A stretch of 63,653 nucleotides of DNA, the filler included, from Vannella sp. (taxonomy: Eukaryota): assembly GCA_023345925.1 (NCBI GenBank). It is 6 parts of 6 records of this genome, joined end to end, with 100 filler letters (N's around TTAATTAATTAA, not from the genome) between each part and the next. Parts side by side here need not be neighbours in the genome. Positions count along the whole stretch, not along the records: positions 1 to 11,625 come from JAJQQN010000324.1; 5 more parts are not named here. One strand, written 5' to 3'. The notes beneath the pieces were generated by a model. That model was not told the DNA's origin. It did no database searches and saw only the letters and a list, made by a program, of their open reading frames with translations. Of the stretch, positions 659 through 61,901 are shown in pieces. The stretch's first letter is position 1. The number at the start of each line of letters is the position of its first letter. Made by a program: the position numbers and the translations under genes.

Positions 659-1717
659 TTAAGGGAAGCGGGCGCTCTTCTTTCTGCTACGGAAGGAATA
701 TGGAAGAGCTGGCTGGAGAGGACAGTGTGCGAGGCTTGTTTCTTTGGTGGTGTGATTGAGTCCGAGTTGCCCGAAAGTGTTGGATCCGAAGACCAGCAGG
801 CCGCCTTCCTGTGGGAAAGCCAAAGAATGCCACCCTCCTGCAACCATGGCGCTCATTTCTTTCCAGAAAGGAATCATCGATGGCTGGAGCTTATCACGAG
901 TCTTACCAGTCCCCAATTGCCCAACTCCTCCGTGTCCCCAGGTCCAGACTCCGCCATTCTCATCCAAAGAGAGAACGTGAATGGATCCGCACGAGACGGC
1001 AAGCATGGGAGGGATGTAGCTGATAGCCTGAAGCTCTGAATATTGTCCAGAAACACGCCCCAGCTGGCCATGGGTGTTGTTCCCGGAAGAGAAGACTCTT
1101 CCTTGCGAGTCGATGAGGATCACTCCCTCTGCGAGAGCAGCCAGACATCGAAGAGAGCCTTGGAGAGGTACTGTCGTCTGGATGAGTGTCGGTTGGAGAG
1201 CATTGTTGGTGTGTCCGAGACCCAGTTTCCCTTTGGAGTTGTCGCCCAACACCCAGAGACCTTCTTCGGCCTCTGCCACGAGGAAGTTGTTGCCACAAGC
1301 CACCTTGATGAGTGGAGGGAAGCCTTCTACCCGTTGAGGAAGAGAACTCGCCCAGGGAAGAGAGGTCTCGCTCGTCCATACCCAAAGGCCGCCTTTGGTG
1401 TCAAGCGCAGCGCTGTGGGACTTACCAGCAGCTACCAACGCAATGAGAGGAAGCTCTAGAACTCGCTGAAAGGTGTGTGAGAGAGAAGAGGAGCGGGAGC
1501 GACCAGCCTCCCACACACCTCCCTCTGCATCAAGAACGAGGGAGTGGTAGCATCCCCAGTCCACCTGCACCGGCTGCGGGCCATTCCAGATGACCTCTGC
1601 AGGTTGTAACTGCTTATCATTCATGTGGCCGAGGCCCAGTTGCCCGCAGTTGTTCCATCCAAAAGCCCAAAGACCCCCTTCGAGGGAGAGGACGATCGTG
1701 TGGTCTCCCAAAGGCAT
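659..1717 (-). CDS. RCC1-repeat (beta-propeller) protein, intronless
   Basis: Repeated RCC1 motifs: FGWNNCGQLGLG, LGDNSKGKLGLG, WGHGGVGQLGTG, FGSNTFGQLGL, each preceded by VAAG..HS-type segments; 352 aa. Confidence 0.92.
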   Translation of the reverse strand: MPLGDHTIVLSLEGGLWAFGWNNCGQLGLGHMNDKQLQPAEVIWNGPQPVQVDWGCYHSLVLDAEGGVWEAGRSRSSSLSHTFQRVLELPLIALVAAGKSHSAALDTKGGLWVWTSETSLPWASSLPQRVEGFPPLIKVACGNNFLVAEAEEGLWVLGDNSKGKLGLGHTNNALQPTLIQTTVPLQGSLRCLAALAEGVILIDSQGRVFSSGNNTHGQLGRVSGQYSELQAISYIPPMLAVSCGSIHVLSLDENGGVWTWGHGGVGQLGTGKTRDKLQPSMIPFWKEMSAMVAGGWHSLAFPQEGGLLVFGSNTFGQLGLNHTTKETSLAHCPLQPALPYSFRSRKKSARFP

Positions 1718-1900
1718 TGAAATGAATAGGGGAAGGTAAGAAGGGCCAGAATAGAGTACCTTTCATGTCTAGAGCAAGCAACAGCGTTCGCTGGCTCTGC
1801 CTTGAAGTCCAGAAGAGGAGGGACAGGAAAGACCGTAAAACGACCAGAACGCATGTAAGGATAACAATGTTATGAAGTATTGAAAAGGGTTATTGGGAAG

Positions 1901-4900
1901 CTAAGCAATGAAGGGGGTGTCCTTCAGGGCCACCAGCGACAAGACGACTTTGTCCATGGAAGGGCGTTTGGCAGGTTTGTCCACCCACATGGATGCTACT
2001 AACTTGGCCCAGCCCTTGGAGAGCTTCTCAGGGAAGACAGGACGCTGGCCTTTGCAAACCAAAGCAGGAATCTCATAAGAGGAAACGTTCTCAAAAGGCA
2101 ACTTGCCCGTGATGACCTCGTAGATGATCATCGCGAAACTGTAAATGTCCGCTTTCAGAGAGTAGTCTTGAGAGGAGAAGACTTCAGGAGCCATCCAGAT
2201 GGGAGTTCCAACGTTGACGGTCATTAACTCGGCTTGAAGGCGAGTTGCACCAATGTCTGCAACGTAAACACCCCAATCCTCTTGGATGAGGATGTTCAAA
2301 GACTTCAAGTCGCGGTGGATAAGGCCAAGAGAGTGCAAGTACTCAATACCAAGTGCTGTCTGGTGCAGCACATTGAACCGCTTTTTGGCATCGAAGGTTG
2401 CAGCTTCATCATGCAAGACGTTGTAAAGTGATCCTCTGGATGCGTACGGACTGACACAGAACATTCTGTTTCCATCCTCGTAAATAGAAGCTCCGTGTGC
2501 AAAGACAGGCAAGAGGTTAGGGTGTCGCAGCAAGCACATGAGAGAGATCTCTTGGAGGATGTCCGTAGATTTCTCGTCGTCATTGAACAGTTTCACAGCC
2601 ACTGTCTCATCGTTCCACTTGGTGCGGTAGATAGAAGAAGTTCCTCCACGGGCAAAGCGAACAAGTTTCCCCATGTCGCTGAGGTCAATGTTAGGGCAGA
2701 AGGAAATACTTCCAGCCGAAGCCATTTTGATGAGCCATTCAAAGCAGTGCTTGTTCTGTACCAAAGTATCACGAACCTGAGTTTGGAATCCCTCTCCAGT
2801 CTGGAAGTGCTTGTTGGACAGGAGTGCTCCCAAAGCAATTTGTCCAAGTCGTTGAAGTCGTCTGTTACGGTAGAAGGGGGAGTTCTTGTCACCCTCGAAT
2901 GCACACGCCTGAACAAGCCATTCAATTTCTTGAGTGTCCATCAAGCCTCGGTTAGCGAGATCTCCAGATGCAAGATAGCCACTGAATATCTCCAGCTTCT
3001 TCTTAGAGAATCGCGAGACACCTCGACGCAACTTGCGGTCAAAAGACGCAGTGAAAGACCGATAAGCCTCCAGAGTCTCTTTCTTCTTGGATTCACAAGA
3101 GAGCCAACGTCTGTAAGACGAAATAGCAACAGAAACTTGGTGTCCAAACTTCAAGGCCTCAATATACTTCGCCTCCGCTGTGTCTGGGAAGTAAACAGGG
3201 AAGAAGACTCGAGTGATTGCAGTGGCTTGATCACGAGAAGGGCAGATGAGCGGCATGTCAGCAGCATCTCCGTTTTTCATTCGGCGATTGTGCTCTGAGA
3301 TAGCAGCCAGAGCACCCCTGAAAGCTGTGTAATAAGAGTCCTCTGTCGCCTTATCTTCCAAAAGGTTTGTACGCGACAAGGCAAGGAGAAGGATGAAGCT
3401 CGAGTTGGCTTGGGCCAGAATAGCTGTTCCAAGCGGAATCTCTCCACAAGATTGCCTGACCATAGGGTCCAGTATTTGGTGACATCTACTAGAGTTAGCA
3501 TATTGAGACCTTCCTGTTCAGTCATTACCTATCGCGGAAAGCAAAAGAAGCGGATTCAATCAGAACACCCGATGTGGTACATGGGATAACAAAGCACATG
3601 CCCTGTTGATCCTTGAGAGTGTCAAGATCCTTCCACATATTGTTCGTTGACAACAAGAAACAGTTGGGCGTGCTTTGTCCAATCAGGGAGTCAAACAGCA
3701 TCGCACGAGTTCTGAAACTGTCTCTTGGAATGACAAACGAGAAGAAGAGACCAATCTCCCCCTCCTCATTATCCATGAGATCCTTCGTCTCTTGATCTCC
3801 ACTTTCACGTGGGGTCATTGTCACCTCAGAGTCAATAGGTAACTCACACACTCTTACATCGGCCTCTGGCTTCTCCAGTGTGGCTTCCAACGAGTCAGTA
3901 TCAAATGACGATGCTCCTTGCTATCATACCTTGTGTCAGGAACCTCTTAAAGTTCTGCTGCGTGGTGATCCGTTCCCAAGTTCCTTTCACATTGATAAGG
4001 AGAGAGATGGGATACTCCACCTCAAGTTTGTTACGAATGGACTGCTTGACAAAGTAGAGAAGGGCGGAGCGTTTGATCGAGATCTCGTGTTGCTCACCAA
4101 CAGACTCGGGGTTCTTCTCATCAAAGGCGATGAAACGGAGCAGGACCGTCGGTTCGCTGTCCACTGCTGGAGTAGCTTCTTTCTCTTCCTCCTTACCATT
4201 GCTCATGAGCTTCTTACGGCGCCAGTAAGCGACTTGACGAGGCTTGTGGAGATCAACGGCGGTGTTGACCCCGTTCGAGTTCGAAGCAAGGTTCTCCACA
4301 GAGGAGTTGGACTCGTTAGAACGGTGCAGAGTGTCTCCAACAAGAGAGCGTTCATCCCAGAGAGAGTCGCTGCGCTGCTCTGCAGAAGCGGCGTTGCTAT
4401 CAGGATAAGAAGTGATAGTCTCATTCGTGGGGAGGAACGAGGGGCCTTGCGAGGAGAGCATCTGAATGAGACGAACGAGCTTGATTTGGATGGCGGGGTC
4501 AACGATGCCGATCCTCCTTAAGCCTGAAGCAGACATCGACAAGAACCGATTACCGTCCACGTCGTTCTCGATAAAAGGGCCAACGTACTCCTCATAGCCA
4601 GCTCGTTCAAGCCACAAAGCAACCTGAGGAGGACGCCACTTGGTAGGGTCGTCTTCCTCAAGGAGGTAGGTCACATCTTTTTGTACCGCGATGAAGTGGG
4701 TCACAACAGCAGGTTCTCCCTTCTTAGTGTGAAGAGGGATCATCAGAAAGTTGTTCAAAAATGGTGTACCGTCCTTGCGGTAGTTGAGGATCTCCACCTC
4801 CAACTCCTTGCCGGAGTGGACAGCAGCTCGCACCTTGTCTACTGTGCGTGGGTTGGTGTGTTTTCCTTGAAGAAAGCGACAGTTAAAACCGATAACCTCC

Positions 4901-5100
4901 TCCTTGGAGTACTGGGTCATCTCGTGGAAGTCGCTGTTGGCGAAAACGATGGGGCAATCAGGAAGGCGCATATCAGTGATGAGCATACTCTCCTCCACCT
5001 CCCTCAACCAAGGATACTCCTTTACAATCGACTCGTAGAGTTTGGAGAGCTCTTTTGGAGCGAGAGAGGTTGCAACAGGCTTCGACCCCTCGTTCCCCAT
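1901..5100 (-). CDS. LOV-SAM-PB1-like-macro-like-TKL protein kinase, 3 exons (5100-3930, 3883-3529, 3488-1901), ~1037 aa
   Basis: LOV signature GFNCRFLQG plus NYRKDG and FIAVQKDVT. SAM: WRPPQVALWL..YVGPFIENDVDGNRFL. Kinase motifs VAVK, HRDLKSLN, DIG, GTPIWMAPE, DIYSFAM. Introns 3929-3884 (GTATGA..TACTGAC..GAAG) and 3528-3489 (GTAATG..GCTAAC..CTAG) join the three ORFs in frame. Confidence 0.85.
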
Positions 5101-8366: not shown

Positions 8367-9013
8367 TCATTGAGGGTTCAAGAGCCAAATGGTGAAACAA
8401 ACGCTCAAAGAAAGAACCTTTCAACCCCCTTCGGCGCCCCCTTGACCTGGATTACACATCTTTGATGATATGAGAGTAATAATGGCTATTAATTGTCTCT
8501 TTAGCGCTCATGCTGATAGGCTCTCTCGTAAGAAGTCCCTTTCTCGCCCCAGAGGGCAGGGCAGGTAAAAGCCTCTCTGCTGTTGGAAGCCTGCATTCAG
8601 GCAGTAGAATGCTCTGGTAAGGGAGATCTGCCTGTTCCTGTCCTATTGACACAAAGGTTGTGAGACAAAGCCTGTTGGTCTCTTGGGTGAGAAAAGTCAC
8701 AAGCGGCGAGGGCAGTTCCTCCTTCGGGTCCTGAAGCACCCAAAAACCCAAAAACTGAAATCAGCTCAAAAGCTTATCCTGCAGAGATGGAGGTCACTAG
8801 GACACTCAACGCAAACACCAGTTTTGTATCCCTCTTCCCCTTCGCTTGTGTGAGAGCATCAGCAATTGGCTTCCCCAAATCATCCGTTGATCTGGAGATC
8901 CGAAATCATTCTCACTAAAACAACATATTTGTGTCACCATTGGAAGATTCTTTGGAGGTTTCCCGCGAACATGCGCCCGTACGGTCAGTCCTTTTTCTCT
9001 CGCCCGTTCACTG

Positions 9014-10000
9014 ATGACTTCTTCTCTGGTGTGCATGGAGGGGCTGTGCGTTGTTCTAGTGTTGCTCCTTGTTGTGGCTGGCCAACCGACTCTGTCCTTC
9101 TCACCTACTCAGGTTGGAGAACCTCCCAAGGACACAACGGTCTCCCAAAGTAGTTCCCAACGCAGCGAGACGCGAAGCGTCTCTACTACAAACTCGCTGT
9201 TAGACCCCTTTCAAGCTGCATCCATAGACTGTGGGACGCGTTGCTTCGTTGGCTCGCGAACGTTCCAGATCCCCGAATTTTCCGTCGCTGGCTCTTCAGA
9301 ACCGCAAGCTATACCTATGGGTGACGTAGAAAGGTTGATGGGAACGCTTCTTCTTCCTCCCAATCTCCCTGGAGGGAGCTTCATGAACGCTTCGTGGATC
9401 CAAACTTCGGATGGCTTCTCTCCCAATGTGGACAAAGGGAGCTATCAGATTGGGTCTACTCTCATCGATATCAACCTCTTTGACTCGACTGGTGAGTCCA
9501 TTGAGAAGTTCTCAGAGTCCATCCGGATCTGCATCAGCGAGCCAAAGGGAAACCTCCCTGTTGGTAGCTGTCTTGGATTCTTCAATACGACCACTTCTAT
9601 CTGGGAATGCCAAGACCGCCAACTCTCTCCTGAGGGAGGCACTTTCTGTGGAGAAACTGGTAAGGCTCCTGGGTCGGGTAGACTTCTTCGCTTACTGACT
9701 GACAGTGAAGATCATCTCACATCATTTGCTCTACTCCTTGGGGCTCTCCCAACGTCAAGCAATGGAGTGGAAGCAAAACACTTCTTCCAATGGATGACTT
9801 TAGCATTCCTTCTGGCAGCGTTCGTCTGCGTTTTCATTGCTGTTGGCTTGAACGAAGCTTATTTTCGATTCCGCATGATCAAAAAGAAGCGTTTCCTTTC
9901 TCACCTGGAGACTATCAAGACTGCAGGGGCCTCTGACGCTTCGCTTAATTCAGATCAGATTCCAGGCTCCAGTCAAGCCCCAATGTTGTCTCCTTTCTAG
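9014..10000 (+). CDS. single-pass membrane protein with GAIN/GPS-like autoproteolysis motif
   Basis: Signal-like LCVVLVLLLVVAG; CLGFFNTTTSIWEC...FCGET|DHLTSFALLL after removing the in-frame 51-nt intron 9660-9710; TM segment WMTLAFLLAAFVCVFIAVGL. Confidence 0.75.
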   Translation: MTSSLVCMEGLCVVLVLLLVVAGQPTLSFSPTQVGEPPKDTTVSQSSSQRSETRSVSTTNSLLDPFQAASIDCGTRCFVGSRTFQIPEFSVAGSSEPQAIPMGDVERLMGTLLLPPNLPGGSFMNASWIQTSDGFSPNVDKGSYQIGSTLIDINLFDSTGESIEKFSESIRICISEPKGNLPVGSCLGFFNTTTSIWECQDRQLSPEGGTFCGETGKAPGSGRLLRLLTDSEDHLTSFALLLGALPTSSNGVEAKHFFQWMTLAFLLAAFVCVFIAVGLNEAYFRFRMIKKKRFLSHLETIKTAGASDASLNSDQIPGSSQAPMLSPF

Positions 10001-35980: not shown

Positions 35981-38900
35981 ATGCGTCGGTGGTTGGTGCT
36001 CCTCGCCTTGACGCTATCGGTCGCGTGTCTTGGCCCATTGGGTGAAAGGGATGCTCTCGTTTCTTTGTACAACGTAACCAACGGAGAGTTCTGGTCCTAT
36101 TACCGTTGGAACCTTTCTTCCGAACCGTGTGACACCCCAACATGGCCAGGTCTCACCTGCACGGGAGCCAATGTAACAAAGATCTATCTTGCCTTCAACA
36201 ACATGACTGGTACCCTTCCTGATCTGGACATGCCTTGGCTTCGTGGACTGTGAGGACGTTTGCTTCAAAGGGTCATCCTAACCGTTCTGAGTAGAACCCT
36301 TGGGAACAACCCAATCTCTGGTACTCTTCCTGAGTGGACCAATTTGATCTCACTCACGTCCATGTAAGCTTTTGAGAGCAAAGCCACCACTTACCGATGA
36401 AACAAGGAATCTGGATAATACCAGGGTCTCAGGAACCATTCCTGAATGGCCCAAGTTGACGAAACTGCAGTATATGTGAGTCCCTCCATCGTGGCAAGTA
36501 GCTCACCCTGAGTCAACCATCAGCTCTTTGGAATTCGACTATCTCCTCGAGGGCACTCTCCCGCGGTGGCACAATCTTTCTTTTCTCGAGCAAATGTGAG
36601 TGCTAGATATCTCCAATCAACCGTACTCATGTTCACTTTCGTGTAGCCGGATAAGCAATTGCCCCAAACTGGCAGGAACGCTTCCCGATTGGCAGAACTC
36701 CCCAAATCTGTTCTACATGTACGTTCTCTTTTTATGTGAAACTATGGTCTGAACGGGGTGGGTGGTAAGTGGCTTAAATTCTAATAATCACACTGGAACT
36801 CTCCCAAACTGGTCCAACCTGGCGAAGCTGAAACAACTGTGAGATTTAGTGCTTGATCTAAAAACTGCCACATTGTCTTCTCACGAAATATGATCAGGTC
36901 CCTGTACAACAACAAGATCAATGGGACTCTTCCCGAATGGCCCCTCGCAAACATGCTCGAATCTGTGTACGTCCTTGGAGTGATTGGCGTAATCTAACTT
37001 TATTTCAACGTTTGCAGGAACTTTGATAACATGAAGCTCACAGGCACCCTTCCAGAATGGCACATTCAGAACAAACTCAGCTACCTGTGAGGTTTACCAT
37101 ATTCTCTTAGATGGCATTCATCCTTTTGGGTTACTAATTATTGCAGGTCTTTGAATGGTAATAAGCTCACTGGATCTATTCCACAATGGTCCAATCTTAC
37201 TTCTTTGGGAATCTTGTAAGTTCTCTTTTAATGAATAAGACAAGCTCTTTGACATGTCTATCAGGTCATTGAGCAACAATATGATCGACGGAACACTCCC
37301 TGAGTGGCCAAACATGAGGACTCTGATCAGCGTGTGGGTAGCCTCTCGCCACTGGACTGACTGACTCACCAATGACAGGTACTTGGGTGGAAACAAGATG
37401 ACTGGAACCCTTCCTGAATGGAATGGCTCTCCTAACCTTTCATACCTGTGAGTTCTTGTAGACAACACAAATGCAAATCTGAACCCGAATTCAGATCTTT
37501 GGAAAGCGGCAACCAATTTAATGGAACACTCCCTCAATGGGTAAACTGTAGTAAGTTGAGAGAGATGTGAGTGTTTGTGCAAAATCCACTGGAAGTATCT
37601 CACTAACGGGTGCAGTCGATTGAGTAGCCAGAAGATCAGCGGGCAACTCCCTGATTGGGGGAGTATGACACGCCTATCAGAGTTATACCTGGGCTCAAAC
37701 ATGATCTCTGGAACTCTTCCTGAATGGGGGAACATGAAATCCCTTACAAAACTGTACTTAGGAGGTAACATGATCAGTGGAACTCTCCCGTTGTGGTCCA
37801 ATCTAACAAACGTTGGTTTGATGTAAGTAACTGATATGCAGAAAGTACCATCGATTCATGGAACCCTGCAGAAGCTTGGGTTCAAACGCAATTTCTGGGA
37901 CTCTTCGACCATGGCGTAACCTGATAAGGCTCACCACCTTGGATCTGAGCTACAATAAGCTGTGTGGCAGTTTGCCAGATCCGAGTCCTAACAACGCCTC
38001 TGTCTTCGTGTACTCCCAAACCTTTAATTGCACTACGAGCCCACCTTCCTTCTACAGTGGAGGAAGTTGCGATGCAATTACAGCAGGGTGCCCCGTAACT
38101 CCAAGCGCGACCCCAACAACTTCCGGATCACCAACGCAAAGTGCTTCGCCAAGTTGCAGTCGGACACAAACTGCGACTTCCAGTCACTCGCCCAGCCCCA
38201 CCGCAAGTGCGACACAGACCTCCTCGCCCAGCAAAAGCACCTCTGAAAGCTCGACTGTAACTCCAAGTTACACCTCCTCACTCTCCGCGAGCAATACGCT
38301 GAGCCCCTCAGGAACCTCCAGTGACAGCCCGTCGTCAACCGCAAGTGAAACATCAACAGCATCGCTCAGCTCCTCATCCAGCCAGAGCAAGACGCCTAGT
38401 GCCTCCGAAACGACAAGCGTTTCTGCCACGGCAACTGAAAGTCAAACTCCAACAGTATCTGACAGTACTTCGGCAACTCCCAGTACTTCGGCTACTGTGA
38501 CTCCAAGTATCAGCCTCTCTTCGAGCGAGACTACCTCGGGGTCCTCCAGTCAAACAGAAAGCTCCTCCAGCACTCAGAGCTCAACTGCCTCGCTAAGTGC
38601 TAGCGCGACTCAGTCTTCGTCAGCATCGGTCAGCTCCTCTCCCAGCCAGAGCAAGACGCACAGTGCCTCCGAAACGGCAAGCGTTTCTGTCACGACAACC
38701 GAAAGTCAAACTTCAACAGTATCTGACAGTACTTCGGCAACTCCCAGTACTTCGGCTACTGTGACTCCAAGAATCAGCCTCTCTTCGAGCGCGACTACCT
38801 CCCCCAGCCAAACAGAAAGCTCCTCCAACACTCAGAGCTCAACTGCCTCGGAAAGTGCTAGTACATCTCAGTCTTCAGCAGGCTCCTCCTTTAGCCAGAA

Positions 38901-40017
38901 CCAGCCACTGAGCAAGAGTACTTCCGAAACAGCAGCTTTATCTGCCACGACAACCGAAAGTCAGACTCTAACAATGTCAGCCAGTTCTTCGGCAACTTTC
39001 AGTCACTCAGTAATTGAAAGTGAGACTCCAATCACAAGCTATTCTCGCGCCCAGAGTGAACCACTCAGCTTCTCGAACAGTGCCCCCTCTCCAAGTGAGA
39101 CTGCTAGTTGGACTCAAGGCGGTTCTAAAGCTCAAAGTAGTAGCACCTCAATAGGTCTCACTGAAAGTGGAAACATCAGTCCAAGTAAGACATTTTCATT
39201 GTCAGCAAGCTCTCCTTCAAGTGGAAGCTCCCAAAGCCAGAGTGGTACTCTCAGAGTTTTCCTGACCAACTCTCCCACCCAAAGTGACCCTGGAACTTCT
39301 AGTGAAAGCGGTGTACCTTCCATTTCCACTTTTAGGAGTCGAAGTATCTCTGAGATAGGGACTGTGTCTCCCAGCCCCCCAAGTCGAGAGGATTTGCTCC
39401 GCATCTTCCTGACAGATCTCATTGGCACTGAGATGTTCCAAATCCCCTCCCTCACACCTGGCAAAGAAATGGGAAGACTATTTGTTTCTCCCAACCTGAG
39501 CTCGATCTTCAACGCTTCTCTGATCATTACCACTGGAAGCGAGCGTGACAATTCCAATCAGAGACTTCTCAGCGGCATCCTGGACATCACTTTGGTGGAT
39601 GGCTATGGAGATTCCAAATCTCGTTTGGATGAAAAGCTGACTATCTGCTTCCCAAGGCCCAATATCACAAAGAAGAGCGAAAAGGTGTGCTTGAGCTACT
39701 TTGATGAATCCTCAGGGAAATGGAAATGCGAAGATGAATGCCTCACCAACATGAAGAAGGACAACTTTTGGTGCGGAGAAACAGGGCATCTCACCAACTT
39801 TGCGTTGCTTTTGGTCGGTAAAAGTGGAGGCGAAACTGACCCTTGCAGCTCTTACACTCAAGACAGCACCTTGTCATGGGTGTCCATGGGCTTTGTGGCA
39901 GGAGCAGTCTTGATCGTCGCCCTTTCCGTTTTGGTCCTCGAGGTTCACATTCGCAGGAAAGCACAAGTAGAGAACTTAGAACTCCATCGGGCAGGTCTAA
40001 AAACTCAATCCATTTGA
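35981..40017 (+). CDS. LRR - Ser/Thr mucin stalk - GAIN/GPS - single-TM receptor-like protein, ~13 introns
   Basis: Signal peptide, LRRNT (ERDALVSLY..W...PC...WPGLTC), plant-type LRRs LxxNxxxGTLPEW, S/T-rich stalk, CLSYFDESSGKWKCED...CGETGHLTNFALLL, TM. Confidence 0.85.
38360..38900. repeat. ~264-bp internal duplication in the mucin stalk, plus a degenerate third copy downstream
   Basis: Near-identical blocks start at 38360 and 38624 (e.g. gacagtacttcggcaactcccagtacttcggctactgtgactccaag twice). Confidence 0.85.
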
Positions 40018-57190: not shown

Positions 57191-57581
57191 GGAATCTAGA
57201 TTCCTTTACTCGTCTTAACCATACTAATAGATGGGTTTTGCACCTCTTTTACTGACTTAAGCGGCCGAACCGAGACAAAATGCGTCCTATCGGGAAAGAG
57301 CACCTGATGTCATGCTCATTTTCTCAGCCTATATCCCAATGATAGTACTATGAAGTACTTCCCTTCTAAAAAACCGTCGAAAATTCGCAAGGACTTTTGT
57401 GGGATTTTTGAGACGCCTTGAAGCTCTCACGACCTAAGATTTTATGTTAATTGGATGTTGTCATATATATCGGAAGTAAAGAGGAGATTTGGATCAAAGG
57501 GATAAAATGCGAGAGGCATTCTGATTGGCTGATAAAGTTCCCTTCTTCAGGATGGACAGTTTCTTTATTTTTTTCTCTCTC

Positions 57582-60500
57582 ATGGGCAAGGCAAAGAAGG
57601 GAGAACCTCAGGTCCGTGAGATCACCATGGCTGAATACCTAAAGCAGCAGAGGGAGAAGTTGGCCAAACTTGAGCTAAATACCTCCCAACGAACTGTCGA
57701 ATTGGGAGCCGACTTCCAACAGAAGTTCAAGCTGTTGGAGAAGGAGGAGGAAGTCCCTGAGGGAGTAAAGGTCGCCAAGAAGTCCAACAAGAAGAAGAAG
57801 GTTGCCAAGCCTAAGGCTGCTGTCATTGAGGTTGGCTTCTCTTTCATGAGCGCTTCTGACAGCACGACCGACAGCCGTCCCGATCGCAGCTCCCGTGAGG
57901 AATGCCCTCCACGTGACCGTGCCTCCCGTGAGGATCGTGGTCCTCGCAAGGGAAAGGGTGATCGACGCCCAAAGAAGGAGAGCTACTGTACCTTGTCAAG
58001 AGAGCTTGGCGAGCTGGAGGACCTTGCCTTTCGTGGATCAGACATAGACTTTGAGGAACTCACCGAAAGCGGGCGGCTTTCAGTAGAAGGGGCGACCAAC
58101 ACGTCTTGGCAGCGCTTCATCCGCTTCTTTGTCGATGAGGTTGAACCAGAGACTTGCCCGCGCACTGTTATCGAGTTGACAAAACACCCAATGTTCTGGA
58201 ATGCAAAGGAACTCAATCTGGAGGTGCTGGACGACTACCTCCAGGTATTGAGGGGTTTCCTCTTCCTTCCTGCTGCTACAGAGGAGAATCGGTTGCCTGC
58301 CCTTCTCACACACCTGAAGGAGATGGTCAAGAAAAGTTCCAAGTCTTATGGAGAGAGCAAAGTGGCAGAGTGGCTCTTTGTACTCAAAGAGTGCGACCAG
58401 CGGATGAGAGAGATCAAGAGAGTAAGAGCTGAAGTGACCGCTATGGAAGATGAGAGATTCTCAGCCTGGCAATCCCTCCAGCAACTGCCAGAGGTTCTTG
58501 CGGCACTCTCTAAGAAACAAGCACCGAGGTTCTTTGACACTCTTCAGCGATCTGGTCAGCTGGAGGAACTACTGAATAGTGCAATCGTCCCGGAAGTATC
58601 TGATAACAGTGTGGAGGTGAGAGAGAATCAAATCTCCTTCCAAAAGGTGTGGATTCCCTTTATTGAAAACGTCATCGCTTGCAGCGAGCGCTCTGTACTT
58701 CAGGCCATCATCAAGCACGAATCGTTCTTTTGGGAGATTGACAGTGTCCTCAAGAAGGTAGCACCCGACCGAAAGGCTGCTGTTGTGGCCTTCCAAGCCA
58801 CCCTTGGCTGCCTTTCGTGCATCATTCGCCTCATTCCTTCTGCTCAAGACCACTACCGAGTCACACCTCTGCTAACTTCCATCTTGGCGTTGCTTGATAA
58901 GAACGGAGGGCGCTTTGAACCGAACGGAACTCCCAATGCACTGTACATCCAATTCCATCAATGTACCGCTTCATTAGTGAGGAACGCAGACATCACTAAT
59001 CTAGAAGATCTATCCAACCAGTATGGCTGGCGCCATACCAATGATAAGGAGAATATCGATGATATTCGCCTTGCTCCTGACCTGGAAGAGATCCTTTGCC
59101 CCTTTCAAGCTCGCATTCCCACCGCTGATGGCACTTTCGAAGCATACGTAGAAAAGCAGTTCCGCATGCAAAGAGAAGAGGCTTTGAGAGGATACATGAA
59201 GGCAATGCAGTGGCTCATCCGAGAGGGCCACAAGAAGGTGCGGTCGGATCATGACTTTGTCAAATCTCCAAGTCAAAGTCTCAAAGCCATCTTCAACGTG
59301 TTCCACAACTTCGGCCACAAGGCAAATGACACATACACTTTTGACTTGCCCACGGGGGTGGGTAAAAGCGCAATCAGTCAATGGAATTACTGGAATACTG
59401 GGTCAGGCTCTAAAGACATCAGCCTCAACTGTCCGATGATGATGATGTACCGGCGAGACGGTGGCGACACACGGTTCTATCCCTGCCAAGTCATAGTTCC
59501 TGTGCAGGTATTGGAGCCGTCCATGGATCAAAGTGGCAATTTCCACTATCAAGCACCCGAGTGCGCGATTGATGTGAAAATTTTGAACTCTCCGTGGCAG
59601 GAGAAGAACTACAAGAGCCAACGGTTCCTCATTGGGCTCAAAGGGATGTTCTTTATGACTCCCCAAGCTGTTCTTGACAATCTCAAAGCATTGAAAGGTA
59701 CTATGCCTTTCCTGAAACAAATCCAAGTTCCACCTGGACCACCAGGTGCTTCACAGCCCCAGTTTGACAAATCACAAAATTACGCCCCGGCATATCTGCG
59801 CGATAGGAAGCTGGACTTTCCCATTGGCGCTCACTTCTACGATGACCCTCAGCTGACGGGTTTCGAGATAGGTGACACGTATGAGGCAACTTTGTCGAAG
59901 TTTCGCCCATTTGCTCTTGGTCTGGATGAGTCCCAGTTGGAAGCATTTGTAGCGAGTATTACACACCCAGTGGCACTAATTCAGGGACCACCAGGTACTG
60001 GAAAGAGCTTCGTTGGCGTTTATATAGCGCGTTTTCTTCTCCTCAATACCACTCGTAGCAGACCAAGTCTTCCAGCTCAATTGGATTCTGAACTCAAGGA
60101 TGATCAAATGGAAGAGATCGGAGATGAAGAGAGTGGAGAGCAAGAGAGTCTATCCGAGGCAGAAAGTGAGCCTTTCAGTGAGCAAGAATCTGATGAGGGC
60201 TCGAAGGCTGTTTTGCCAATCTTGGTAGTCGCCCAAACCAATCATGCATTGGACGAGTTCTTAATGAGCCTTATTTCTTCTGGAGCAGTCTCCAGAAAAG
60301 AAGTCCTCCGAATGGGAAAATCCATCATAAGACAAGAGCTTCGCCCCTGTTTGCTCTTGCGTGACGAGAAAGGTTCGATTAGAGAGAACGCTTGTGAGCG
60401 TGCAAGAGCGTGTAAGGTGGTGGGAATCACTACTTCAGGTTGTGCCCTTAACCCTCAACTGATTGCTGAACTGAAGCCGAAAGTTATCATTTGCGAAGAG

Positions 60501-61901
60501 GCTAGTGAAGTTTTAGAATGCCACATGCTTATGGCGCTCAGTGACAGTACAGAGCACCTTATTCTAATTGGCGACCACATGCAACTCAGTCCAAAGGTGA
60601 CCGAAATGACTCTGACTGGTGAACCCTTGAACTTCGACCGGTCACTCTTCGAGCGTCTTGTGTCTCCCTTTGACGCTATGGGCGATAAGCAGCGCGCAGG
60701 TAGGGTGGTAACTTTAAATGTCCAGCGGCGTATGCATCCATCCATCTCTCAGCTTATCAGGCACCCTGAACTCTACCCGAATCTGAAGGATTTGCCGACA
60801 ATTGAGGAGTATGTTCCAGCTGGCTTTCCCTTTAACGTTTGGTTTTTGGACCACAATGGACCAGAGAGTCAACCGCGCAACTCGACTTCTCATTGTAATC
60901 TTCAAGAGGCACGGATTGCTCTTCAAATGGCCAAGTTTCTCGTTTATCAAGGAAACAGGGAGATCGTCATCATCTCTCCCTACCAGGCTCAAATTGATGA
61001 GTTCAACAGAATGCTAGATGAACCTGAATATCAAATGCAATTGGAAGTGCCCGGTAACTATGGGCCGGAACTACAAACGTTCCCTTTGCGGAACTCTATC
61101 CGATTGGCAACCATCGATAGCTTCCAAGGAGAAGAGTCGGGTATAGTCATCCTTTCTCTTGTCCGGAACAATGCCCAAGGCGGAATGGGGTTCCTTAACC
61201 GCAACCGAATCAACGTTATGCTGTCACGGGCAAAGTACTGCCTTATCGTTCTGGGTTCCACAAAGACCATCATGAAGAAACGGGGCAAAAATCAAACCGC
61301 CGTGCTTTCTGACGCTGTGAAGACCCTCCAATCCCAGAACCGAGTCCATGAGGAACTTCCTCTTCGCTGCTTCAATCATAGCACTGAGATTCAATATGCA
61401 CATCCAGACCATCTCGACAAGTATTGCAAGGATGGTGGTTGCGACAAGCCATGCGAGGGTGTCTACTACAGATGTGGCCATGCCTGTCCGAGGAATTGCC
61501 ATTACCACGACCGAGAGCACAAGTTCGACTGTCCCAAAATACTGGAAAAGGTCTACCCGGGCTGCCTCCATGTGCAGAACTATCCTTGTTCCGGTCCTGT
61601 GCCAAACCAATGCCCTGAGGTGGTTGCGGTTGATGCGCTGAAGGAGTGTCCTCATTTGACTGTCCCATGCCACAAGTTGAAAGAGCGTGAGCTCCCTGGG
61701 TACAAGTGTCGGCAGCCATGTCCTGAGATCTGCCAGTCCTGCAACCAAACCTGCCTTACTCCTTGTTACGAATGTGCTCACAATGATCGCAAACAAAAAC
61801 GACGGAACGAGGCCACCTGCTCGCGTTGCCAGAAACGAGAGGAAGTTCCCAAGAAGAAGAAGAAGTTCGCGAACACGAAGAAGAAGAAGAAGCGGCGCTA
61901 A
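57582..61901 (+). CDS. ZNFX1-like SF1 (UPF1-like) helicase with C-terminal NF-X1-type Cys/His fingers, no introns seen
   Basis: QFRMQREE, IQGPPGTGKS, QTNHALDEFL, CEEASEVLE, LIGDHMQL, SLFERL, QRRMHPSI, TIDSFQGEE, RINVMLSRAK, then GGCDKPC...CGHACPRNCH fingers. Confidence 0.9.
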   Translation: MGKAKKGEPQVREITMAEYLKQQREKLAKLELNTSQRTVELGADFQQKFKLLEKEEEVPEGVKVAKKSNKKKKVAKPKAAVIEVGFSFMSASDSTTDSRPDRSSREECPPRDRASREDRGPRKGKGDRRPKKESYCTLSRELGELEDLAFRGSDIDFEELTESGRLSVEGATNTSWQRFIRFFVDEVEPETCPRTVIELTKHPMFWNAKELNLEVLDDYLQVLRGFLFLPAATEENRLPALLTHLKEMVKKSSKSYGESKVAEWLFVLKECDQRMREIKRVRAEVTAMEDERFSAWQSLQQLPEVLAALSKKQAPRFFDTLQRSGQLEELLNSAIVPEVSDNSVEVRENQISFQKVWIPFIENVIACSERSVLQAIIKHESFFWEIDSVLKKVAPDRKAAVVAFQATLGCLSCIIRLIPSAQDHYRVTPLLTSILALLDKNGGRFEPNGTPNALYIQFHQCTASLVRNADITNLEDLSNQYGWRHTNDKENIDDIRLAPDLEEILCPFQARIPTADGTFEAYVEKQFRMQREEALRGYMKAMQWLIREGHKKVRSDHDFVKSPSQSLKAIFNVFHNFGHKANDTYTFDLPTGVGKSAISQWNYWNTGSGSKDISLNCPMMMMYRRDGGDTRFYPCQVIVPVQVLEPSMDQSGNFHYQAPECAIDVKILNSPWQEKNYKSQRFLIGLKGMFFMTPQAVLDNLKALKGTMPFLKQIQVPPGPPGASQPQFDKSQNYAPAYLRDRKLDFPIGAHFYDDPQLTGFEIGDTYEATLSKFRPFALGLDESQLEAFVASITHPVALIQGPPGTGKSFVGVYIARFLLLNTTRSRPSLPAQLDSELKDDQMEEIGDEESGEQESLSEAESEPFSEQESDEGSKAVLPILVVAQTNHALDEFLMSLISSGAVSRKEVLRMGKSIIRQELRPCLLLRDEKGSIRENACERARACKVVGITTSGCALNPQLIAELKPKVIICEEASEVLECHMLMALSDSTEHLILIGDHMQLSPKVTEMTLTGEPLNFDRSLFERLVSPFDAMGDKQRAGRVVTLNVQRRMHPSISQLIRHPELYPNLKDLPTIEEYVPAGFPFNVWFLDHNGPESQPRNSTSHCNLQEARIALQMAKFLVYQGNREIVIISPYQAQIDEFNRMLDEPEYQMQLEVPGNYGPELQTFPLRNSIRLATIDSFQGEESGIVILSLVRNNAQGGMGFLNRNRINVMLSRAKYCLIVLGSTKTIMKKRGKNQTAVLSDAVKTLQSQNRVHEELPLRCFNHSTEIQYAHPDHLDKYCKDGGCDKPCEGVYYRCGHACPRNCHYHDREHKFDCPKILEKVYPGCLHVQNYPCSGPVPNQCPEVVAVDALKECPHLTVPCHKLKERELPGYKCRQPCPEICQSCNQTCLTPCYECAHNDRKQKRRNEATCSRCQKREEVPKKKKKFANTKKKKKRR

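Follow-up and report, generated by a model that had tools for sequence, protein, structure and literature searches.

Among the LOV receptors of eukaryotes, phototropin is the characterised LOV-Ser/Thr kinase, and photoreceptor function in the Amoebozoa is largely unstudied. Physarum polycephalum has LovA, which in the accessible part of its description is known by prediction only and consists of RasGAP, followed by PB1, PAS_9, SAM, then PB1 domains in that order, with the NCRFLQ motif intact; the same part of the paper states that the blue-light receptor behind Physarum sporulation has not been molecularly identified (PMC4758236). The accessible portion of a 2025 paper cites LovA just as an expressed gene (PMC12308756). 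The present analysis deals with a gene of Vannella sp. at positions 1901..5100 (minus strand) of a 63,653-nucleotide stretch, filler included, which joins parts of 6 records of assembly GCA_023345925.1 and is called the window below. The gene is predicted to encode a protein of 1037 residues in which a myristoylation motif, a LOV domain, a SAM domain, a PB1-like region, a degenerate macro-like domain, and a TKL kinase follow one another. Judged by its predicted domains, what appears to be new here is the kinase output on a LovA-type sensor block; the block itself is already in print for LovA. The favoured reading, to which a probability of about one half is assigned, is a membrane-anchored blue-light receptor in which light would alter SAM-driven clustering and so switch on the kinase.

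Similar to LovA as partially described, the Vannella product has LOV, then SAM, then a possible PB1-type region, and keeps the Cys of NCRFLQ. A profile of the LOV-end/SAM/PB1 block, searched against 1.84 billion representatives, retrieved the protein P0231, which has exactly the LovA domain order (E 2.7e-13). In LovA, compared here by its partial description only, the RasGAP domain is N-terminal, whereas in the Vannella protein the block itself is N-terminal with a myristoylation motif, and a macro-like domain and a TKL kinase lie at the C-terminus. Orthology with LovA was rejected, as the MGNEGS start comes after an in-frame stop and there is no RasGAP match.

Phototropin is the functional analogue, with a LOV sensor and a Ser/Thr kinase in one chain. 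In contrast to its two LOV domains and AGC kinase, the Vannella protein has one LOV, a SAM replacing the J-alpha helix, a TKL kinase, and a predicted lipid anchor. Membership of the phototropins was rejected on the single PAS_9 stretch, the TKL best matches, and a LOV outside the phototropin clade. The initial annotation had proposed an independently built photoreceptor kinase; the separate origin of its LOV from that of phototropin stands in the tree, but the LOV-SAM-PB1 block appears to be reused, as LovA indicates, and not made from scratch. CTR1, TAK1, B-Raf, and ZAK/MLT share the kinase domain class, with the difference that the glycine loop and DFG are atypical in the gene product. ZAK presumably likewise joins a SAM to a TKL kinase, and we know of no photoactive LOV in any of these kinases. 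In the accessible part of its description, the RGS-LOV protein BcLOV4 resembles the gene product in being a eukaryotic receptor that has a single LOV and is linked to membranes and G-protein signalling; its membrane binding is reversible, light-driven, and electrostatic, in contrast to the predicted permanent lipid anchor and the other outputs here (PMC6099885).

The LOV outputs named in the accessible part of a marine survey are pKinase (phototropin), bZIP, RGS, WRKY, homeobox, EF-hand, and HSF (PMC8017926), and PB1, Ras, and macro are unmentioned in the accessible part of an algal LOV preprint (10.1101/2025.06.20.660589). The combination of LOV, PB1, RasGAP, and blue light returned only the Physarum paper in the literature searched, and LOV with RasGEF returned engineered tools. 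No description of a LOV-SAM-TKL kinase was found in this literature, outside which lie subscription papers and the survey of Glantz et al. 2016. That large LOV survey is said to be one that could list a LOV-SAM-kinase architecture.

The predicted LOV-kinase gene

The gene and its predicted features are arranged as follows.

3930..5100, minus strand: exon 1, residues 1-390, with the N-terminal motif, N-cap helices, LOV, SAM, linker, and most of the PB1-like region
3884..3929, minus strand: intron 1, 46 nucleotides, phase 1, GT-AG, CTGAC branch-like motif
3529..3883, minus strand: exon 2, residues 391-508, with the end of the PB1-like region and the first half of the macro-like domain
3489..3528, minus strand: intron 2, 40 nucleotides, GT-AG, CTAAC branch-like motif, alternative in-frame acceptor at 3486
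1901..3488, minus strand: exon 3, residues 509-1037 and the stop, with the second half of the macro-like domain, the helical region, and the kinase
5080..5100, minus strand: predicted N-myristoylation motif MGNEGSK, from sequence
4987..5058, minus strand: family-specific N-cap helices before the LOV core, with an EYPW motif, from the structure model and family alignment
4669..4986, minus strand: LOV domain, residues 39-144, with C74, R75, Q78, R91, N106, N116, and Q140
4447..4653, minus strand: SAM domain, residues 150-218, directly after LOV, by Pfam and fold match
4219..4239, minus strand: linker motif PxQxx[YF]W, conserved within a stretch that is disordered elsewhere, by family conservation, at low model confidence
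3843..4149, minus strand: PB1/ubiquitin-like region, residues ~318-404, spanning intron 1, an uncertain assignment
3179..3746, minus strand: degenerate macro-like domain, residues ~437-612, spanning intron 2, by profile and alignment
2690..3178, minus strand: conserved helical region, residues ~613-775, kept in the relatives P0151 and P0256
1925..2677, minus strand: TKL (CTR1/TAK1/Raf-like) Ser/Thr kinase, with K808, E822, HRDLKSLN 900-907, DIG 920-922, T932, and APE

The initial annotation joined three open reading frames through introns of 46 and 40 nucleotides into 1037 residues, and this join, including the NAGNAG alternative acceptor, is reproduced: the exons make 3114 nucleotides with a single, terminal stop, and the ATG is preceded, 11 codons upstream, by an in-frame stop. 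Intron 1 has the donor GTATGA and the acceptor AAG, intron 2 has the donor GTAATG and the acceptor TAG with a second in-frame TAG 3 nucleotides on, and both contain a CTRAC-like branch motif. Left unspliced, intron 1 leads to a stop at 3903-3901. Elsewhere in the window, five introns were inferred in other genes; hand-picked among frame-keeping candidates, they measure 45-52 nucleotides. The host is taken to be a compact eukaryote with introns. The GT-AG candidates that keep the frame number 18 at the first junction and 10 at the second, and frame-keeping by itself is weak evidence for the two splices. Under a codon model built from ten long open reading frames of the window, all three exons are coding-like, and of the three frames of exon 2 only one is open. 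Near-identical contigs match the gene DNA in 4/4 sequencing runs compared, one crossing intron 1 and one crossing intron 2, and among the matches listed the two exonic contig differences examined are both synonymous. The motifs GFNCRFLQG, NYRKDG, FLN, VQKDVT, and MGNEGS are all found where they had been placed before.

The fusion itself is judged real from homology because P0151 (858 residues) and P0256 (1321 residues) each carry, without a break in the frame, LOV, the SAM region, the same middle region, and the kinase, which supports the single fused gene that had been proposed. P0151 gives a single unbroken alignment to residues 438-1024 that crosses intron 2 (31.8% identity over 641 columns, E 1.7e-77) and also aligns with residues 69-217 (E 1.7e-42), and P0256 aligns with residues 9-187 and 675-1027. 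Two further relatives, P0122 (62% identical over exon 1) and P0128 (48%), have Gly-Lys at the position of the intron 1 donor and then unrelated short tails; they look like unspliced gene calls of closer relatives. Among the 10 frame-keeping forms of intron 2, the 3528-3489 splice aligns best to 66 macro-domain proteins (top-5 mean 79.0, against 67.2 for exon 3 alone), and 2/200 shuffles of exon 2 reach the spliced score. Scores against P0151 are 105 for 3528-3489, 106 for 3568-3514, and 104 for the acceptor 3 nucleotides on, and do not single out the boundaries; the acceptor is probably either 3489 or 3486. The splicing of this gene rests on homology and is therefore predicted. The window is without a second copy of the gene and without an Rfam match. 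A 549-base contig (run X1, record 7) is ~83% identical over the LOV coding part 4834-5022 and would come either from another LOV gene or from a related organism present in that run.

The canonical LOV domain of the initial annotation, with its Cys, Asn residues, and signalling Gln, is borne out by Pfam (PAS_9 6.3e-18, one stretch only), by solved LOV chains in the PDB (E down to 2e-30), and by fold matching (Z 12.7, root-mean-square deviation (rmsd) 2.5, 119 aligned). N106, N116, Q140, R75, and R91 line up with the solved LOV chains; we take the first three to be flavin-pocket residues and the two Arg residues to bind phosphate. The identity to algal phototropin LOVs is 35-51%. The product carries GFNCRFLQG with the photoactive Cys at C74, in line with GXNCRFLQG, which the accessible part of the marine survey gives as the defining motif of LOV photoreceptors (PMC8017926). 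Leu40 sits at the position of AsLOV2 Val416, as inferred by mapping the numbering; this position is Leu in 6/7 family LOVs and Val in 37/44 phototropin LOVs. In the accessible part of a study on AsLOV2, V416L slows recovery 78-fold (PMC3867380). By analogy, Leu40 hints at a slow photocycle, which would integrate the light level over time. An Atlas search with exon 1 found only generic PAS/LOV clusters, one of them, at lead level, a cluster of 52 Nucleocytoviricota PAS_9 proteins (317 residues, 0.89); among viral contigs, 0/236 pattern matches encode a relative of the LOV-SAM family.

The SAM domain, likewise annotated before, is well supported by Pfam (SAM_1 2.8e-09) and by a fold match to the DGK-delta SAM (Z 12.3, rmsd 1.1, 68 aligned). 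DGK-delta, CNK2/HYP, and SARM1 SAMs are among the best fold matches, and we take these to be polymerising or pairing SAMs. At the N-terminus, MGNEGS agrees with MGxxx[ST], the N-myristoylation consensus.

The structure model of the PB1-like region has a beta-beta-alpha-beta-beta-alpha order, which would fit PB1. However, the PB1-like label of the initial annotation is not confirmed in the gene product, where neither Pfam nor a family profile gives a match, and the label rests on relatives. A PB1 profile built from 7 relatives left the gene product unscored and did not separate the spliced from the unspliced form, and the fold searches, dominated by LOV and SAM matches, barely test PB1. PB1 scores above the Pfam cutoff at the equivalent place in two metagenome loci (L001 and L003), and it occurs in 9/55 scanned relatives at E up to 0.001, 5 of them above the cutoff, with five families shown per protein.

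The macro-like middle region falls below Pfam detection and is supported, though degenerate, by phrog_14717 (E 1.7e-4), by BLASTP against 66 macro members (E 5e-8), by a profile-profile probability of 88.8, and by Atlas top matches in the Macro clan (0.86-0.87, lead level). Both comparison proteins tested (2/2) were confirmed as PF01661. A macro hidden Markov model alone scores 5.4-7.4 bits, where shuffled sequences reach at most 5.5, and its match does not cross intron 2; modelling the two halves as a complex gives an uninformative score of 0.01. The supporting signals are weak but concordant, and homology to the macro fold is supported at the sequence level. The region is colinear over ~110 residues with confirmed members of the macro domain PF01661 (Appr-1-p processing type); in contrast to the members L143 and L089, the alignment does not keep the PAN Asn, the Gly-rich loop, or the CPGLGTG loop, which we take to be ADP-ribose binding and catalytic motifs. 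The domain is likely non-catalytic, and an active macro hydrolase was rejected on the loss of these functional loops. The helical region at residues ~613-775 has no Pfam or PHROG assignment. Residues 510-775 of exon 3, folded without an alignment, gave a mean predicted local distance difference test (pLDDT) score of 40.5, and this model was left unused.

The kinase scores higher with Pfam PK_Tyr_Ser-Thr (4.9e-45) than with Pkinase, and among the 60 best matches shown its best solved match is CTR1 (E 6.5e-40), followed by TAK1, TNNI3K, and B-Raf. The TKL (Raf-like) assignment made earlier thus agrees with Pfam and the solved matches, although the atypical glycine loop and DIG were absent from the initial annotation. 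All three full-length kinases retain the Lys and the alphaC Glu together with HRDxKSxN, the Mg-binding Asp, and MT..VGT..W.APE, across kinase domains that are only 36-43% identical (105/245, 89/250).

The LOV-SAM family and its outputs

The LOV motif is found in 57 of the best 150 profile matches, so the family comprises at least 57 clusters at 50% identity; members are clusters at this level, and their counts describe the family and not independent events. The Cys is kept in 56/57 members. The distance from the signalling Gln to the first SAM Trp is 15-17 residues in 44/44 members in which the Gln motif was found (57 examined), and the N-cap motif [YF]P[WYFK] is present in 45/50 members having that region. 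Among members with an N-terminal LOV, 33/40 start with MG and 26/40 with MGxxx[ST], compared with 7/110 and 1/110 unrelated matches, and this enrichment backs the myristoylation motif of the initial annotation as a predicted, conserved feature.

A domain scan covered 55 proteins, namely 50 of the 57 LOV-motif members and 5 other long matches. The outputs are RasGEF in 4, C-terminal RasGAP in 6, an N-terminal RasGAP-PB1 of LovA order in 1, and kinases in 2. The rest are mostly LOV-SAM-(PB1)-(PAS) forms of 300-500 residues, fragments, and long proteins without further Pfam matches; beyond the 55, there are two further forms with RasGEF and two with RasGAP. A word-index search with the first 270 residues of exon 3 found 0 relatives in 1407 long candidates; the full profile search found some.

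In a quick tree (94 rows by 111 columns, few for a tree), the family LOVs (7 rows, Shimodaira-Hasegawa-like approximate likelihood ratio test support 99) and the phototropin LOVs (44 rows, 98) each make up a group of their own, and bacterial LOVs also fall outside the family group. Six kinase-type LOV-SAM sequences cluster with a local support of 92 (FastTree, no outgroup). As read from these proteins, the family is a single LOV lineage in which the LOV-to-SAM spacing is fixed, an MGxxxS/T start is usual, and the predicted outputs (RasGEF, RasGAP, PAS, TKL kinase) are swappable. Light is likely wired directly into Ras-type signalling in these cells, because relatives put the same sensor on predicted Ras switch-on and switch-off domains.

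Metagenome contigs (6/64 parts scanned) hold 3 loci among 80 that bear the block, and none of them has a TKL gene. In L001 (1180-1200), a donor-like gtaagc lies right after PB1 near the contig end, and the gene may continue into a spliced effector. L002 (2357-3751) and L003 (4058-5920) are LOV-SAM-PB1-PAS and lack an enzyme domain; L003 looks bacterial in its 5' part, and its contig is possibly chimeric. Six long members of 936-2216 residues (P0168, P0183, P0184, P0203, P0164, and P0216) carry LOV, some with two PAS_9 stretches, and their large Pfam-free regions suggest further outputs.

Proposed mechanism and alternatives

In the favoured reading, Gly2 of the observed motif would be myristoylated and the protein held at the membrane. 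The LOV domain would bind flavin mononucleotide, and blue light would form the Cys74 adduct and flip Gln140, as in known LOVs. The change may then run from the LOV sheet and the N-cap helices into the SAM, 15-17 residues past the Gln, and alter the self-association of SAM and possibly PB1. Clustered kinases would trans-phosphorylate, with Thr932 as a candidate site, and start MAP3K-type signalling as expected of the TKL family; the macro-like and helical regions would have non-catalytic roles in regulation or docking. Since dimerisation commonly activates TKL kinases, clustering with trans-phosphorylation is the most economical reading. From the constant LOV-SAM geometry, the motif for a lipid anchor, and the exchangeable outputs, the block would be a portable sensor that alters oligomer state or local concentration at the membrane, and since the same block stands on unrelated outputs, a generic signal such as oligomer state is favoured.

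Several observations weigh against this reading. About 560 residues part the SAM from the kinase, so the coupling is invisible in sequence. The kinase has a reduced glycine loop (ARGGTSS) and, in place of DFG, DIG in the gene product and DYG in P0151 and P0256; canonical GxGxxG and DFG are absent from the gene product, which makes activity less certain and leaves the TKL assignment unaffected. Only 2 full-length kinase relatives occur among the best 150 matches, and because the members were gathered with a profile of the same block, its conservation looks inflated. P0151 and P0256 give no alignment over the PB1-like region, and with PB1 undetectable in the gene product as well, the sequences do not back a general PB1 role.

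As in phototropin, the LOV block, or the linker motif with the macro and helical regions, may instead inhibit the kinase within the chain, with light freeing it and the oligomer state unchanged. Several fold alignments reach model residues 281-290 (pLDDT <50 there) and suggest that the linker motif could pack on LOV like a J-alpha helix, and the pre-kinase helical region is conserved in all three kinases. However, SAM and not a J-alpha helix comes after LOV at a fixed spacing, and one block serves RasGEF, RasGAP, and PAS outputs of unrelated surface; in-chain inhibition is judged rather unlikely. Somewhat less probable again is that LOV senses light and the output is scaffolding or relocation, the kinase being weak, inactive, or constitutive and merely moved to its substrates. 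The non-canonical glycine loop and DIG/DYG of all three kinases would agree with this, and short members (~400-500 residues) of LOV-SAM-PB1-PAS form without an enzyme imply that the block can act without catalysis; against it, every core catalytic residue and the Thr of the activation segment are conserved despite a kinase identity of 36-43%.

There is a small chance that LOV with its flavin reports the redox or oxygen state in a biofilm and not light. The best-matching sequencing runs are biofilm metagenomes of one study, and the accessible part of the marine survey notes that LOV/PAS relatives such as NifL sense redox; on the other hand, the same part describes the motif as missing from relatives that do not sense light (PMC8017926), and here GXNCRFLQG is intact, as is its Cys in 56/57 members. 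Least probable of all is an error in the model of intron 1, by which exon 1 would be a stand-alone LOV-SAM-PB1 protein of 399 residues and the macro-kinase a separate gene, or both forms would be made. Exon 1 does reach a stop 9 codons beyond the donor, its unspliced tail could provide the final strand of PB1, short proteins are numerous in the family, the acceptor is AAG rather than YAG, and 18 candidates keep the frame. In contrast, P0151 and P0256 are single-frame from LOV to kinase, the Gly-Lys followed by unrelated tails in P0122 and P0128 is what a shared G|GT donor predicts, both differences of a 151-base contig over intron 1 lie within the intron (a weak point), and there appears to be no space for a second gene start before exon 2.

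Beyond light-driven SAM clustering in this one protein, a wider proposal is tentative and rather doubtful. Amoeboid protists may have their own membrane-anchored LOV-SAM photoreceptor family that puts a whole Ras module under blue light, with light-gated RasGEFs, RasGAPs, and Raf-like kinases co-assembling via SAM/PB1; this gene would be the kinase member, a second independent class of LOV receptor kinase, polymerised by light. With its RasGEF, RasGAP, and Raf-like outputs, the LOV-SAM family offers concrete candidates for light-to-Ras conversion in crawling cells, and a TKL receptor kinase from a separate LOV lineage, if true, would be a case of convergent design. The compact, fixed-spacing LOV-SAM unit on unrelated effectors is a plausible natural tool for light-controlled oligomerisation, and natural single-chain LOV-RasGEF/GAP proteins would complement engineered two-part systems.

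Other genes in the window

659-1762, minus strand: intronless RCC1-repeat gene just downstream of the LOV-kinase gene, by domain scan
8891-10000 and 37831-40017, plus strand: a related pair of proteins, predicted to be membrane proteins, in which a Cys/Trp motif and HLTxFALLL precede a hydrophobic helix
51747-56621, minus strand: DEAH-type helicase, 1624 residues, single frame, Pfam DEAD and Helicase_C
57525-61901, plus strand: UPF1-like helicase, 1458 residues, Cys-rich C-terminus, AAA_11 and AAA_12

Many divergent contigs (runs X1-X3) stack on 1500-1770, which suggests a large family of repeat genes. The two membrane proteins have no Pfam match; their HLTxFALLL regions presumably resemble a GPS autoproteolysis site. 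The segment ahead of the 1624-residue helicase has what we take to be a likeness to the PARP/ART catalytic motif (HGT...Y), its C-terminus presumably has a nucleotidyltransferase-like motif (GGFLRD...DID), and the 1458-residue helicase is, we assume, ZNFX1-like. These two adjoining helicases are possibly a pair of RNA-defence genes.

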